A stretch of 50,751 nucleotides of DNA, from sequence record MZ826699.1; one strand, written 5' to 3'. Below, piece after piece: positions 4,273-31,213 of this stretch; position 1 is the stretch's first letter, and each line of letters opens with the position of its first letter. The stretch is from Escherichia phage P817. A program made the position numbers and the translations under genes. Under the pieces are notes generated by a model, which had not been told where the DNA came from, made no database searches, and was given only the letters and a program-made list of their open reading frames with translations.

Positions 4273-4429
4273 AAGCACCCCTTTTGTTTTCAGATTGTGG
4301 CGGTAGAGCTGCATAACATGCCCATTGTGATGATTGCTTGATGGATACTCTTTCATATCGCTTTCCTCTCGTTTGGTGTGAACTAACTATAACAAAACCC
4401 GCCGGAGCGGGTTTAGCAATTCGTGCTAT

Positions 4430-10800: not shown

Positions 10801-11519
10801 AGATATTACTCCTGATTGGTGGTCTTCGTTAAGATGGGTGCAATACTACCAGCGTGGTTACATGTTATCAAGTGTTATTGATGCAAATGTTCGACTTAGT
10901 TACGTTTTGCGACCTCTCGCCCCAGATATAGCTCAATGTAAAGTCTGCGTATAGTTTGTAGATAAGGATTTTTAGCAAATGGGCCCCTACATGACCTTTT
11001 ATTCCTACAATGTCGTCATATTCCTACAGGTGTAGGAAAATATCATAGAAAACAATCGCAATATCACATATCCACTATCTACATTATCTACATATATATA
11101 TATTAATAATAATAATATAGATAAATGGTTATTATATAAGGATATTTTAATGTAACCATGGCGTAATTCTGCGTGATAAGCGTACACGATTCCTACGGTG
11201 GGCTTCTTCATCTACACGGCGTAACTTTTATAACGCGTATGCGCTAGAAACGTGTGGCGGGAAAATCCTACCAGGCGATCAGGGGATCAGACTTCACCCC
11301 ATCATTCCCCCCATCAATGAATCATTGCTCAATTCGCAACAATCGAAAACATCATTGCATCGGAAGCAATATTGCTGTATGTGCAATAGTCATGATAATC
11401 ATTGCAATAGCTGCAACAATCCATAAATCCAACGAATGGCACTTTTTTCTAATGACCGATCAGTTGTGATTCGCTATTGTTACTCCATCGAAACGAGTGA
11501 AGAGAACTGGAGAAAATAA
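10801..11519. promoter_or_regulatory. AT-rich divergent control region with palindrome TTCCTACAGGTGTAGGAA, direct repeats (ATTCCTACA, ATCTACAT, ATCATTGC x3); candidate early promoters or origin
   Basis: Non-coding, flanked by divergent genes; about 70 bp shares about 80% identity with 30710..30805. Confidence 0.45.
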
Positions 11520-12352: not shown

Positions 12353-12430
12353 CACGAATTGCTAAACGAAGCCTCACGGATTGAGGCATAATAATTTCAT
12401 CGAAACGAAGTACACAAAGAGGAAGTAAAA

Positions 12431-13283: not shown

Positions 13284-13346
13284 AGCCCTTCGGGGCTTTT
13301 CCTGTATATTGATCTCATCGAAACGAAACACAAAAAGGCAAACAAA

Positions 13347-13771: not shown

Positions 13772-15355
13772 ATGTTTGATTTCAACGAAGATAAATTGTC
13801 AATCGATCAGGTCATGGCTGTAGCCGCTGCCGATAACCTGCCACCTCTACGCGTAGCAATCAACGCGAACGGGTACAGGCAAAGCCAGTCATTCTGGAAA
13901 TCCCCAACAGAGATTGACTCAGGCGGTGACAAATATCCGGTAATTTCACTTGGTAACGATTATGATGTCGTTGGTAAACTGTCAAGCAATGCCGCTCGTT
14001 CTGTTCAGTTCCCCGAGTCGTCCGCTTACATGCATTTCCTCGGATGCATATCAGCCGCCATGCTGGGCCGATTTACGGTTGAGTATCACGGAACACAACA
14101 GCCTACCGCGCTGTACGTCGTAACCAGTCAGCCGCCATCGACAGGTAAATCAGCCATCAACTCACTTTCGCTGGCCCCGATGATCGCAGAGACTGAACGA
14201 CTCAACGAGATCCGAAAGCGCGACCGCAAGAAGATTATGGCTAAGCTTTCCGCTCTATCCAAGGAGATGAAGCAGGAGAAATCACCGTCTGATATGGCGG
14301 CTCTGTTTGAGGAGAAAGAGGAGCTTGAAGAAAAACTTGAACGACTCTGTGACATCGTTTTCCCCGTATCCGACACCACGCCGGAAGGTCTTGCGCGAAT
14401 CAACAACCGCCAGGGCAACTTTGCAGTTATCTCGGATGAAGCAACGAGCGTGAACTCACTGTTAGGCATGACCTATGGTGACGGCTCAAAGAAAACGAAC
14501 AGCGAGCTTGTGCTTAAGGCGTGGGATGCTGGTAACGTATCTATCGCCCGTGCGAACGCAGACAATAACATGAGCTTCATTGCGATGGGCTGTATATCTG
14601 TAATTGCACAGGATGAAACAATCAACGCGATCATGAATGCTGGTGCGCGTGGTATCGGTGTGTCAGAACGTTTCTTGCTTGTGCGTGAGAAGTCATTCCT
14701 TGGCGAGCGTGTATTCGTTGACGAAAAAGGCGAATCAACATACGAGCCTATTGATGGCGGACTCAAGGCGGACTACTTTCGTCTGGTCCATGAGATCATG
14801 AGCGAACACGAAGTCAACCTGACAGTGAGCACGTCGGCGATGAAATATCTCAACCGTGCGCGTCAGGATATGGAACCTCACCTTGCGGACGGCGGGAAGT
14901 ATTCACACACAATGCTTCGCGGCGCGCTTGGTAAGTTTGATAAGCAGGCTATCAGGATCGCGGCTGTTCTTCACACTGTGCGTAACTGGTTTAATCCCAA
15001 TGGCGGTAGTCCGAAGAAGTCCAGAGAGATTGAGCTTGATACAATGCAGGAAGCGGTAATTATGTTCCAGGAACTGAGTAAGACTTATCTGTCATCTGCA
15101 AACGCTGCTGGTCATGCTGGCGACCATGCGGAGATGAATAAGCTGATCGATATTCTGATCAAGCAAGGTAAGAACGGGAAAGGCGTTGTAGGTGTCCGAT
15201 CCCTATATGAAGCGGCTCGTAAGGTTAAGCCATTCGAGGGCCAGGCTGGCGTAATGACTCGAATCAAAGACCATCTGATCCCTATGCTTGATGAGAAAAA
15301 CTATACGTGCCTGATTGGTGATAAAATTTACATTAATCCGCGACTGCTGGGGTAA
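13772..15355 (+). CDS. putative replication-associated P-loop NTPase
   Basis: 527 aa; Walker A-like QPPSTGKSA and Walker B-like FAVISDEAT in central region; RBS AAGGAG. Confidence 0.55.
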   Translation: MFDFNEDKLSIDQVMAVAAADNLPPLRVAINANGYRQSQSFWKSPTEIDSGGDKYPVISLGNDYDVVGKLSSNAARSVQFPESSAYMHFLGCISAAMLGRFTVEYHGTQQPTALYVVTSQPPSTGKSAINSLSLAPMIAETERLNEIRKRDRKKIMAKLSALSKEMKQEKSPSDMAALFEEKEELEEKLERLCDIVFPVSDTTPEGLARINNRQGNFAVISDEATSVNSLLGMTYGDGSKKTNSELVLKAWDAGNVSIARANADNNMSFIAMGCISVIAQDETINAIMNAGARGIGVSERFLLVREKSFLGERVFVDEKGESTYEPIDGGLKADYFRLVHEIMSEHEVNLTVSTSAMKYLNRARQDMEPHLADGGKYSHTMLRGALGKFDKQAIRIAAVLHTVRNWFNPNGGSPKKSREIELDTMQEAVIMFQELSKTYLSSANAAGHAGDHAEMNKLIDILIKQGKNGKGVVGVRSLYEAARKVKPFEGQAGVMTRIKDHLIPMLDEKNYTCLIGDKIYINPRLLG

Positions 15356-19914: not shown

Positions 19915-20154
19915 CTATTGGTTAAAATCTTCAGGGCAATCTTGCTTATACTCTAGAAGGTCTTTTTTAATAGACTCTCCCCATGAATTTACCGGATTGC
20001 CTTTAACCTCATCAAACGACATGTCGAGAGATCCGGAGAAATTCCACGCATCACCTTTAAACCCTGCCGCCTTAAGCTTTGTGCAAACAATACCTCTAAA
20101 TAAAAGGAACTGACCATCTTCATTTAAATTAACTTTCTTATTCATATTAAACAC
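19915..20154 (-). CDS. hypothetical protein
   Basis: 79-aa ORF, AT-rich. Confidence 0.4.
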   Translation of the reverse strand: MFNMNKKVNLNEDGQFLLFRGIVCTKLKAAGFKGDAWNFSGSLDMSFDEVKGNPVNSWGESIKKDLLEYKQDCPEDFNQ

Positions 20155-23827: not shown

Positions 23828-24310
23828 GTGATGAAAATGAATGCAAATGATAAGCGTACTCTTAACGGTAACAACGGAACTATCCGCACGGAAGATAAGA
23901 AGCAGCGCAAACGACCGTCAGGTTACTATGTTCTCAAGGATGAAGTAAAGGCCGGATTAAGAGCGCGACTTGATATTGTGTTTGAGTTCTACGGCAGCAA
24001 GGCGAACATGGCGAAACAATTAAAAGTTACTCGCCAGGCCGTTGAGGAATGGTTTAAGCGTGGGATGATGTCGGCCCGTGGCGCTCAATTGGCGCACAAC
24101 CGATACAAGCGAACTGGCGAAGGGTTCCGCGCTACATTCTGCCGACCGGATCTCCAATTCGATGGAAATGGAAAGCCGCTGACACTCCGGTGCAAAAAAC
24201 GTCACATGCTGCGCGTTGTTACTGAGGCTGAATTAGCTACTAAGCCAGAATGTCGATCGTGGCGCAAGATTAAGGCCGCTAACGAAGCAGCACGGAAAGC
24301 TAAAGAATAA
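23828..24310 (+). CDS. putative HTH DNA-binding protein
   Basis: Candidate HTH ANMAKQLKVTRQAVEEWFKRG; basic protein; first gene of a rightward unit. Confidence 0.4.
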   Translation: MMKMNANDKRTLNGNNGTIRTEDKKQRKRPSGYYVLKDEVKAGLRARLDIVFEFYGSKANMAKQLKVTRQAVEEWFKRGMMSARGAQLAHNRYKRTGEGFRATFCRPDLQFDGNGKPLTLRCKKRHMLRVVTEAELATKPECRSWRKIKAANEAARKAKE

Positions 24311-25304: not shown

Positions 25305-25399
25305 CAATTACCCGCTACGGAGGGTTTTTTTATGCCTTACGTAATGCTATACTGCACTTTAGCAATTCGTGCTAAACACCAATATAGGAGTTGATTATT

Positions 25400-29395: not shown

Positions 29396-30430
29396 TTAAA
29401 GAATATGCTTAAACTGTTTCATGATCCAGTCAGGGGTCTCAAGCTCTATTTCCGGTTCTCCGTTGTTGTATGAAGGCCACACGTCGTTTTCTTCGCACAT
29501 TGAGAAAGTGTGAATTACGCTCATATACTGCGCACGACCAATCTTAAGCTGATCACCACTCATCCGGTAAGCCATCGGCAGGTAAGGCTCTTTCTTCTCC
29601 TGTGCCAGTAGTCGGACAACTACAGGTCTTGTTTCCTCAAAGCATTTAACGAACAAGTCGCGCTGCAATGCCATCTTGAGATAGTATCCATGATTGAATG
29701 CCAGGCGCGGGAAATCAGTCGGGTTAGCGCTCATTGTCGTTTTGTAATCAGTGATGACGACAATTTCAGGATGAATGTCAGGATCGTAACCCATGCGCCG
29801 GATTGCCTCTGTATCCTTAACGATGTCAACATGGTCAAGTCGCACCTTAACTTTAACGCCACAAATCACGCCAAACAATGAATACTCACGGAATGCAGTC
29901 TCACTGTTCATGCAGGCGTTATGTTCAGGAATCATCTCAAGAACCTGGCGCATACTGACGCAGGCGTCGTAGTCCTCTGCCTTAACCAGCTCCACTCCGT
30001 CTGCCCACGCCTGACATTGTGCGATCATGTCAATCAGCCACATGACGTTAAGGTCTTCACCACAATCAACCATCATTTTAATCAACTCTGGATATTGCTT
30101 GCCGCTTGTACCAGTCAGGCCAAATGATTTTAGTTTCGTTGCCAAGGCCGCTTGGCTTGTGATCACGTTTTCAATCTCGCTTTCTTTCGGTGCGCGGCGA
30201 TACTGGCGTTCAAACAGTGCCTTACTCTCGAAATTGGTATGCGACTGCGTACCGAAGACCAGTGCCTTAGTCGTCGAGTTCATTTCAAACTTCCACGCCG
30301 CAGGGCAAGTACTGTGGATCTTGCTGAGTGACGAGCCTGATACATACTCGGCGGTCCACTCATCTTTGCTGTGGTAAAAGTCGTTGCTCATTTCTTCTGA
30401 CGTGAAGTATTGAAACAGTGGCTTGGTCAT
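29396..30430 (-). CDS. PD-(D/E)xK recombination exonuclease (RecE/YqaJ-like)
   Basis: RLDHVDIV...VVITDYKTT motif typical of RecB-family nucleases; first gene of recombination operon. Confidence 0.5.
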   Translation of the reverse strand: MTKPLFQYFTSEEMSNDFYHSKDEWTAEYVSGSSLSKIHSTCPAAWKFEMNSTTKALVFGTQSHTNFESKALFERQYRRAPKESEIENVITSQAALATKLKSFGLTGTSGKQYPELIKMMVDCGEDLNVMWLIDMIAQCQAWADGVELVKAEDYDACVSMRQVLEMIPEHNACMNSETAFREYSLFGVICGVKVKVRLDHVDIVKDTEAIRRMGYDPDIHPEIVVITDYKTTMSANPTDFPRLAFNHGYYLKMALQRDLFVKCFEETRPVVVRLLAQEKKEPYLPMAYRMSGDQLKIGRAQYMSVIHTFSMCEENDVWPSYNNGEPEIELETPDWIMKQFKHIL

Positions 30431-30970
30431 CTCTTTAATCCTCGTTCGTTGTTGATGCTGGTAACTATACGCGCTTGGTTGCGTTAGTCAAGTGGTTACA
30501 TGTAGATATTTGTAATCACGTGTATGCAATGGCGTCAGTTACATAAAATGGCTATCCAGACCAGCTATAGCTTGATGTAAACGGCGTGTATATCGTGTAT
30601 ACCATTTTTCGCGGAGGGTGCATTGGTGTATGCGTGATTAGATACTGTATGAATATACATATTAGAAATTTATAAGCGGAACACTCTATAGAAGTAGTTA
30701 CACGATATACACAGTAATATATATAATAATAATAATTATAGTAGAAGGTTGATATATATAGATATTTTAATGTAACTATCGCGTAACTAGGCGTAACTGC
30801 GCGTATATCATTTTTCGCGGACGAGATTGCATACATCGAGTTACATCGGTTACGTGTATATAGTTGCATTTTCATACTTGACACCAAAAAGCACGAATTG
30901 CTAAAGCTCAATTAATGGTTAGTGTATAGTTACCTCATCGAAACGAAAAACACTTAATAAGGATTCAAAA
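30431..30970. promoter_or_regulatory. AT-rich divergent control region homologous to 10801..11519
   Basis: Shares TGGTTACATGT and about 70 bp ...AATAATAAT...GATATTTTAATGTAAC... with region 1; internal repeats GCGTAACT x2 and TATATC...ATTTTTCGCGGA x2. Confidence 0.45.
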
Positions 30971-31213
30971 ATGACTAACTTAATCAAACTTTCAATCATC
31001 GCCGCAGCAGCAATCATGATGGTAGGTTGTTCTTCTGGTCCTCGTCCTGATGGTTGGTGTGCAACGCAATCAAACGGAGTGTGCGTGGCTAAATGGAAAA
31101 ATGGTGTGGTTGTTCCAGCTGGTGAAGTTGATGTTCGCTACGCTGGTATTGAATCAAAAGCAGGTGGAGGCTACGGCGGTTCAGTTGCAGATCACGGCTC
31201 TAAGGAGTGGTAA
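30971..31213 (+). CDS. lipoprotein, candidate Cor-like superinfection exclusion protein
   Basis: 80 aa; [20 protein letters not shown] lipobox; next to tail-tip J-like gene region. Confidence 0.45.

Follow-up and report, generated by a model that had tools for sequence, protein, structure and literature searches.

Among the closest described counterparts of the locus studied here are the two separated origin copies, oriL and oriR, of the Bacillus phage SPP1, a virulent pac/headful siphophage, in which repeated boxes for a phage-encoded origin-binding protein are located beside an A/T-rich unwinding region. Its binder, G38P, and the origin function were experimentally shown, and oriL lies inside gene 38. 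In the satellite phage P4, ori and crr are two cis sites that carry common iterons (TGTTCACC), and the Staphylococcus aureus pathogenicity islands (SaPI) have two iteron sets flanking an A/T-rich segment. The iterons of P4 and SaPI are recognised by a primase/helicase-type initiator, and the P4 alpha protein combines primase, helicase and origin-binding domains in a single chain. The primary origin of T7 and the oriF and oriG of T4 have an easily melted tract beside early or middle promoters, where transcription aids its opening; the tract is downstream of the promoter, the transcript primes synthesis, and there is more than one origin per genome. Here we describe R2, an intergenic region of Escherichia phage P817 (record MZ826699.1), together with its paralog R1 in the same genome. 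The window, by which we mean the whole 50,751-nt stretch that was analysed, is the complete, circularly permuted genome of a virulent Escherichia coli siphophage (Drexlerviridae, Braunvirinae) that is Rtp/ESCO41-like.

R2 is a divergent early control region of composite build and has a collinear paralog, R1; Drexlerviridae genomes keep both. We found that R1 and R2 contain the least stable DNA of the genome and that short repeats are arranged around it in a layout that stays the same between phage lineages in which the repeat sequence differs. We propose that R1 and R2 are paired modules of iterons plus an unwinding element, embedded in divergent early control regions, and as such candidate replication origins; we give this proposal an even chance of being right. 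No better candidate for a replication origin of the T1 family has been put forward to date. The parts concerned are listed below.

30431-30970: R2, non-coding, between exoVIII (minus strand) and a lipoprotein gene (plus strand)
10801-11519: R1, between a DUF7174 gene (minus strand) and small plus-strand genes
30686-30862 (~180 bp): conserved non-coding core of R2, paralogous to R1 11080-11174 plus flanks and orthologous across Braunvirinae and Rogunavirinae
30715-30740: pure A/T run TAATATATATAATAATAATAATTATA, 26 nt, with the least stable 40-mer at 30718-30757; candidate DNA-unwinding element
30697-30701, plus strand: GTTAC copy at -41 from the A/T centre, pointing to the tract, inside AGTTACACGATATACAC
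30771-30807, minus strand: phased array right of the tract, with ATGTAAC at 30771, GCGTAAC at 30781, GCGTAAC at 30791 and GCGTATA at 30801 (spacing 10, 10 and 10 nt)
30831-30854, plus strand: ATACATCGAGTTACATCGGTTACG, a tandem GTTAC pair (+102 and +111), the most conserved stretch of R2

Duplex stability was computed from nearest-neighbour energies in 40- and 100-nt windows. The R1 and R2 cores had the two lowest stabilities of the genome (z 5.3 and 4.8), no other site exceeding 3.9, and they also hold its two longest A/T runs (28 nt in R1 and 26 nt in R2; the next longest is 17 nt). The same two cores were the least stable DNA in all four complete genomes compared, those of this phage, T1, Rtp and TLS (z 4.3-5.9, next at most 3.9), and the minimum holds in T1 and TLS although their sequences barely align with this phage. 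For comparisons across the family, IMG/VR loci were taken in two sets of 80, one around the DUF3987 helicase and the other around exoVIII. Fifty contigs reached 4 kb or more upstream of the helicase gene, and in 38 of these the R1-type core, which sits 1.5-5.6 kb upstream of that gene, was the least stable 40-mer of the ~20-kb locus (z at least 4); 51 contigs entered the repeat analysis. Each of the 29 paired contigs had an R2-type core (z 3.6-5.1), whose distance upstream of the exoVIII start was 304-392 nt, as against 307 nt in this phage.

The GTTAC motif is present in 10 copies in R2, compared with a genome average of 2.6 per kb. Copies on the left face the tract, inverted 10-nt-phased copies follow just right of it (at +34, +45 and +55 from the A/T centre), and a tandem pair lies ~100 nt to the right; further copies are at -200 and -243. 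The original prediction had noted GCGTAAC(T) twice, and these two copies, at 30781 and 30791, belong to the phased array. In the R2 of T1, GTTACACGATATACA is found exactly, and TGTTACA occurs six times in R1 and R2 of T1 and nowhere else in its 48.8 kb. The repeat of TLS is TGTTC(A/C/T), and other lineages have GAACA, GAAACA, GGGACA, ATAAC, GTAAG/TTACC and others, with positions and orientations unchanged. In the clearest case, lineage L060/L155, GGGAC was placed at -36, -27, +39, +50, +98 and +108 in R1 and at -37, -28, +38, +49 and +98 in R2, on one contig. The fixed layout with an exact 6-mer was observed in 9 of 51 loci, compared with 0.81±1.0 in block-shuffled sequences and 1.9% at random centres. 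In the clearest lineages R1 and R2 of a given genome share one motif. When the motif was learned from R1, its mean score in R2 windows of the same genome was 1.60 of 3 (64% with at least 2), compared with 0.48 (10%) in unrelated genomes. The fixed geometry with a sequence that changes by lineage suggests that a phage-encoded sequence-specific protein binds both regions and forms a multi-protomer complex round the tract.

The region search with R2 matched 81 phage records; the records closest to a 24-kb piece of the window were ~90% identical over at most 78% of its length. The R2 core retains ~80% identity out to the Rogunavirinae, where its left neighbour is a Rha-type regulator gene rather than exoVIII. 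In eight relatives it was 74-91% identical, compared with 60-70% at the third codon positions of the adjacent lipoprotein gene. Identity reached 82.9-97.1% at 30826-30860: six of the eight, among them the four Rogunavirinae, stood at 94-97%, and the other two at 85.7% (DTL/L013) and 82.9% (ES/L006). The core is, on this comparison, under purifying selection, with an identity that exceeds that of synonymous sites in the adjacent gene. No open reading frame in the core was conserved in frame among the relatives. Rfam 15 gave no match at gathering score in the window and chance-level hits at 30300-31100 (E ~0.7), ARAGORN gave no tRNA match, and DNA folding for hairpins or cruciforms (z -1.3 and -0.3) was no better than that of shuffles. 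A relative among plasmid or host origins was rejected, because searches of 72,556 plasmids and of 5,426 E. coli genomes returned nothing that matched the core.

R1 and R2 gave a Smith-Waterman score of 86. Dinucleotide-shuffled sequences scored 24.5±3.6, with a maximum of 40, and sequences shuffled inside 30-nt blocks scored 23.5±2.9. With the pure A/T runs of both masked, the score was 51, compared with 21.1±2.5 (z = 11.8). These results bear out the similarity that the original prediction had read between the two regions, and the shuffles and masking exclude low-complexity A/T composition as its sole source, the objection which that prediction had itself named. A genome self-BLAST with the R2 core found R1 as the sole other match. 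The segment AATAATAAT...GATATTTTAATGTAAC, already seen as common to both regions, lies at 30715-30777 and 11092-11156. Collinear blocks were also found on both sides of the core, with order and orientation kept: CCAG.TATAGCT..ATGTAAA to the left (z 3.6) and TAT.GTTAC..CATCGAAACGA to the right (z 4.7). The paralogy was recovered inside other genomes as well (Rtp, 123 nt, 83%, E 1e-31; T1, z 8; TLS, z 10). Orthologs resemble each other more than paralogs do, which indicates that the duplication is old and that both copies were kept by selection; recent gene conversion between R1 and R2 was rejected for the same reason. The shared and repeated parts outside the core are as follows.

30492-30503, plus strand: GTGGTTACATGT, a 12-mer exact in R1 (10854-10865), abutting the leftward -35 hexamer
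30561-30581, plus strand: paralogous block CCAGCTATAGCTTGATGTAAA (z 3.6), with a perfect 10-nt palindrome AGCTATAGCT at 30563-30572; R1 copy at 10922-10942
30586-30615, plus strand: tandem GTGTATATC/GTGTATACC and the left copy (30594-30615) of a 22-nt repeat, from the repeat search
30800-30821, plus strand: right copy of the 22-nt repeat, CGCGTATATCATTTTTCGCGGA, from the repeat search
10843-10871, 10922-10942 and 11080-11174: leftward sigma70 promoter, block and A/T core of R1, in the same order as in R2
11438-11454: degenerate 21-nt repeat in the right part of R1, followed by TATTGT and by CATCGAAACGA at 11486-11496

The 12-mer had been reported as common to both regions and was indeed found in both. 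Block CCAGCTATAGCTTGATGTAAA is also present in Rtp R1, Rtp R2 and ESCO41. The direct repeat that had been noticed about 200 bp apart is the 22-nt CG(T/C)GTATA(C/T)CATTTTTCGCGGA, the two copies of which are 206 nt apart and 91% identical. In Rtp, the TTTCCGCGGA version of this repeat has six copies, all in R1 and R2, and none elsewhere. The stretch GTGTATATCGTGTATACC at 30586-30603 had been described as palindromic, which is not correct: it is the tandem direct repeat GTGTATATC/GTGTATACC and not a palindrome. Positions 30586-30599 and 30699-30712 form a perfect 14-nt inverted repeat, 99 nt apart, the latter being the reverse complement of part of GTGTATATCGTGTATACC.

The layout, combined with the least stable DNA of every genome tested, corresponds to the anatomy of an iteron-type origin, and R2 has both an A/T unwinding element and an adjoining array of replicon-specific repeats (units of 5-7 nt). 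Under the origin proposal, the short repeats would be iterons for a co-evolved, phage-encoded, sequence-specific DNA-binding protein, and the A/T tract would be a DNA-unwinding element flanked by inverted, phased initiator sites. Negative supercoiling between the two outward-firing promoters would probably aid opening (twin-domain model), and the DUF3987 MCM-like helicase and the Zn-ribbon primase would be loaded at the opened tract. R1 and R2 would then be the two replication origins of the phage, analogous to oriL and oriR of SPP1. A wider form of the proposal, that T1-like phages use two paralogous origins, one next to the pac end and one upstream of the recombination operon, with iterons co-evolved with the phage initiator, is put forward more tentatively, as somewhat short of an even chance.

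Candidate proteins are encoded by the genome. The structural model of the DUF3987 helicase (13772-15355) has a predicted local distance difference test score (pLDDT) of 89, and MCM2-7 subunits head its list of PDB matches. At the C terminus, ~75 residues (about 451-521) in the order helix-strand-helix-helix-strand-strand are read as a putative winged helix. The MCM2-7 matches and the winged-helix order suggest an MCM-like replicative helicase with the C-terminal domain as a candidate origin-binding domain, and helicase activity of DUF3987 has been shown (PMC11724360). The primase has a primase-helicase Zn-ribbon domain, and the annotation of its T1 homolog notes a similarity to the P4 alpha replication protein. 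Beside the primase gene lies one further gene.

23828-24310: Cro-like helix-turn-helix protein

Sequence searches with the helicase and the helix-turn-helix protein against PDB gave no match. For these phages, the authors of the TLS study found no origin and no iterons, and the A/T cores are undescribed there (PMC11447400). Transcript maps or origin data for Drexlerviridae were not found in the searchable literature. As far as this literature shows, the A/T cores with their lineage-specific repeat layout are new, and the right arm belongs to a published repeat family.

Several observations weigh against the origin proposal. Two of the GTTAC copies in R2 (TATAGTTACC, at 30460 and 30924) are part of promoter consensus sequences and lie outside the array, and R1 of this phage keeps the layout partly, with TCTAC in place of GTTAC on the left and the right-hand pair inverted. 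The repeat units are short (5-7 nt) and some counts are small, and the contigs of the family comparison are interrelated and hence not independent. GC skew follows the direction of transcription and gave no origin signal. R2 of TLS is not flanked by divergent genes, so supercoiling cannot be a general aid to opening. A search for the binder by co-variation failed: the helix-turn-helix protein varies in its recognition helix, as does the helicase in its putative winged helix, but neither varies in clean step with the repeat type. Finally, the operator arrays of a regulator would co-vary by lineage equally.

This last point leads to the explanation that competes best, namely pure transcription control, in which the repeats would be operators through which a phage regulator, such as the protein encoded at 23828-24310, switches the early promoters of R1 and R2 jointly. 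Looping would be possible, and the A/T tract would be a bendable spacer or an upstream promoter element. We regard this as unlikely, at something like one chance in four. The features of the two arms of R2 are listed here.

29396-30430, minus strand: exoVIII (PDDEXK/DUF3799), start at 30430, followed by Erf and SSB
30464-30491, minus strand: leftward promoter for exoVIII-Erf-SSB, with -35 TTGACT at 30486-30491, a 16-nt spacer and -10 TATAGT at 30464-30469
30863-30886, plus strand: ~25-nt lineage-specific insertion with a perfect TTGACA (30878-30883), in a few close relatives (PH1062, TH27)
30887-30906, plus strand: Drexlerviridae 21-nt direct repeat in its GAA-type form, AAAAGCACGAATTGCTAAAG (published consensus aaATAGCACnnnTTGnTAAAA, PMC11447400)
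30925-30930, plus strand: -10 hexamer TATAGT, which follows TTGCTA at 21 nt, whereas most other copies have 22 nt
30936-30946, plus strand: leader CATCGAAACGA, followed by the ribosome-binding sequence AAGGA at 30959-30963 and ATG at 30971
30971-31213, plus strand: phage lipoprotein gene (PF24052), followed by a DUF6453 membrane protein gene

The gene starts at 30430 and 30971 agree with the borders of R2 that had been given earlier. The leftward promoter matches the sigma70 consensus at 10 of 12 positions and is among the best intergenic hits of the genome in a position-weight-matrix scan; its transcript is predicted to start near 30457. It is kept in ETEP102, and T1 has TTGACT-16-TATAAT upstream of exoVIII. 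R1 has a leftward promoter in the equivalent place, at 10871 (TTGATA-17-TAGTAT with a TG extension). The other predicted transcript starts are near 10836 (minus strand) and near 11486 and 30936 (plus strand). A promoter role of the R2 left arm can be inferred, and the published TLS annotation points the same way. Its authors accept three sigma70 promoters only, two of which (P01 and P51) are the left arms of R1 and R2 (PMC11447400 Table S1), and the third drives the helix-turn-helix "transcriptional regulator" gene (PMC11447400), a set that fits an early cascade under transcription control. This explanation also gains from the strong outward promoters in both regions, from GTGGTTACATGT, which touches or overlaps the leftward promoters, from the highly variable recognition helix of the helix-turn-helix protein between lineages, and from the lineage-specific repeats shared by R1 and R2, which fit any phage-encoded binder.

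The coordinated early regulation that the original prediction had suggested is partly upheld, in that R1 and R2 are true paralogs, are divergent and both have strong leftward sigma70-type and rightward phage-type promoters. The part that does not hold concerns the shared conserved core, which contains no good promoter and lies ~250 bp from the leftward start site; position-weight-matrix hits inside the core were weak, and R1 and R2 had none of them in common. A gap of 100-250 bp separates the array from the promoters; its centre is ~250 bp from the leftward start, and R1 and R2 differ by ~270 bp in how far the core is from the rightward promoter. The core and the lipoprotein gene are separated by another gene in phages of the ESCO41 type. 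A regulator needs no least-stable DNA between its sites, yet this property is conserved where the sequence is not. The shared core has the build of a protein-assembly site round an unwinding element more than that of a promoter or operator, and regulation thus stays a live rival and not the best explanation.

The rightward arm belongs to a genome-wide family of ~19 promoters that had been overlooked in the original prediction, as had the packaging terminus of R1. The 21-nt repeat is already published, with 18 intergenic copies in TLS and copies in T1, Rtp and Rogue1 (PMC11447400), where its function is posed as a question between stoperator, enhancer and UP element. The R2 copy departs from the consensus once (AAGCAC for TAGCAC), is intergenic, has the same orientation as transcription, and precedes the ATG at 30971 by 84 nt (class norm ~76 nt). 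In the genome of this phage, AGCACGAATTGCTAAA or its TTT variant has ~19 copies, all between 3.9 and 30.9 kb (3940-30906) and outside the structural-gene block. Examples (ATAGCACnnnTTGnTAAA) are given below.

4427, 7976, 9717, 19916, 21230 and 29391, minus strand: 21-nt repeat
12351, 13269 and 30890, plus strand: 21-nt repeat

The spacing between the 21-nt repeat and the -10 hexamer was counted in this phage, T1 and Rtp, and was found to be fixed at 22 nt (range 21-23). The number of copies in which a good -10 hexamer follows TTGnTA at exactly 22 nt was 13 for this phage, 15 for T1 and 18 for Rtp, and random positions gave a flat distribution. This spacing is too long for TTGnTA to be a -35 element. 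The GAA-type repeat is a 15-nt palindrome, TAGCA-N5-TGCTA, centred near -42, and the repeat would thus occupy about -50 to -35, the position of activators that replace -35 contacts. These observations point to a phage-specific, probably activator-dependent, class of promoters. A sigma54 promoter was considered for the 21-nt repeat and is at most a weak candidate, the GG/GC spacing, read by eye, being N8 and not N10. In most relatives the insertion at 30863-30886 is absent and the core directly abuts the 21-nt repeat; the TTGACA that the insertion brings might be an extra host-type promoter for the lipoprotein gene.

The 11-mer CATCGAAACGA has six exact copies in the genome and one with one mismatch. 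All of them follow a -10 hexamer at 5-6 nt and precede a start codon by 25-35 nt. T1 and Rtp have the variants CATCGA(A/C)AACGA. The 11-mer is a conserved initial transcribed or leader sequence.

3893 and 21183, minus strand: CATCGAAACGA
11486, 12398, 13316 and 30936, plus strand: CATCGAAACGA
23792, plus strand: CATCGAAACGA with one mismatch

In several of these promoters the 22-nt gap between repeat and -10 hexamer holds a GC-rich hairpin (12366-12395, 13285-13305, 19931-19950 and 4400-4412). The gap hairpins (for example GCCCTTCGGGGC and GCCTCACGGATTGAGGC) resemble terminators of the upstream genes, so that terminator and promoter would be joined in one cassette, as in the promoter-stem-loop cassettes of T4. 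A further copy of the repeat, TTTAGCACGAATTGCTAAAG at 25357-25376, is located head-to-head with the start of a tail-fibre gene (25391, plus strand). No -10 hexamer was found at the usual spacing of this copy on either strand, and it may be decayed or differently used.

A site for a host nucleoid protein (H-NS, IHF or Fis), or curved or upstream-promoter DNA that boosts or insulates the divergent promoters, is an improbable explanation of R2. TpA-rich A/T tracts are typical targets of these three proteins, and TATCAACCTTTTA in Rtp-type R2 fits the IHF consensus WATCAANNNNTTR when read by eye. This IHF-like match is broken in the window (TATCAACCTTCTA), a host-protein motif would not change by phage lineage at a fixed position and orientation, and the GC-containing invariant block at 30831-30854 is left unexplained. 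DnaA-box-like matches are single: a DnaA-box cluster (TTATNCACA) was rejected after reading by eye, with one 8/9 match each in R2 (ATATACACA at 30703) and R1 (TTATCTACA), and the equivalents in T1 and TLS, also read by eye, do not match. No exact LexA box (CTGT-N8-ACAG) was found in the window, T1, Rtp or TLS. A LexA-like sequence with ACAT for ACAG, CTGTATGAATATACAT, is located at 30645-30660 as the only such site of the genome; it is kept as TACTGT(A/G)TAAA..ACAT in Braunvirinae R2 copies, and R1 of T1 has CTGTATATATAAACAT. As for an attP-like site, no recombinase is named in the annotations of T1, Rtp, TLS or close relatives, and the open reading frames of the window were not searched for recombinase domains.

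It is still less probable, with a chance of a few in a hundred at best, that R2 is a second terminase recognition or packaging-series site. This idea draws on where the genomes of related phages end. In the T1 record, coordinate 1 is the pac end (terminal repeat at 1-2800) and aligns to 11416/11417 of the window; the records of ESCO41 and XT34 begin at the same position, at a shared GATT|GTTGCA. These ends fall within one element of R1.

11333-11456: ATTGCA/TGCAAT-repeat stretch in R1, between the core and the right arm, with no counterpart in R2

This stretch is likely the pac cleavage region of this phage. The genome ends map into a part of R1 that R2 lacks, and therefore R1 is pac-proximal and R2 is without the pac part. 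Correspondingly, R2 showed no pac terminus, the ends of related phages mapping to R1, and the shared core is 250-300 bp from the cut.

That R2 has no function of its own, as a decaying old duplication, a low-complexity coincidence or an overlooked small gene or RNA, is the least probable reading of all: a 119-aa open reading frame with a TTG start (30552-30911, minus strand) and small hypothetical proteins annotated in some records could speak for it, but these reading frames vary in frame and extent between relatives and are of low complexity, and a coding reading was rejected; no Rfam, tRNA or structure signal was seen, the similarity survives A/T masking (z 11.8), and the conservation of the core exceeds that of synonymous sites.

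T1 belongs to the seven original T phages. Phages of its kind are often met in the gut, in collections for phage therapy and as contaminants of laboratories. If the origin proposal is true, it would provide the first origin assignment for the T1 family, with exact coordinates for every member, and it would explain the conservation of two long intergenic regions. A natural collection of orthogonal origin-initiator pairs would come with it, in which lineage-specific sites and binders could be used to follow specificity drift under a fixed assembly geometry. Even if the cores are regulatory, the fixed layout with changing motifs marks a conserved protein-DNA complex. For the right arm, the fixed 22 nt between the 21-nt repeat and the -10 hexamer turns the published question about this repeat (PMC11447400) into a testable promoter model.

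Compared with known systems, R1 and R2 resemble the two-copy architecture of the SPP1 origins, with the differences that both regions are intergenic here and are candidate origins, and that there is no sequence similarity to SPP1. With P4 there is a link through the primase, the T1 homolog of which is P4-alpha-like, whereas primase, DUF3987 helicase and helix-turn-helix protein are encoded here by separate genes; TGTTCAC of the TLS lineage resembles the P4 iteron, which may be coincidence. In comparison with the T7 and T4 origins, the tract of R1 and R2 is located between two promoters that fire away from it and has repeat arrays around it, whereas T7 and T4 have no such arrays. The lambdoid PL/PR regions have divergent early promoters with regulator sites, as R2 would under transcription control. 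The lambdoid operators, however, overlap their promoters and are palindromes of ~17 bp, whereas the units in R2 are 5-7 nt long, lie 100-250 bp away from the promoters and are arranged round the least stable DNA of the genome.

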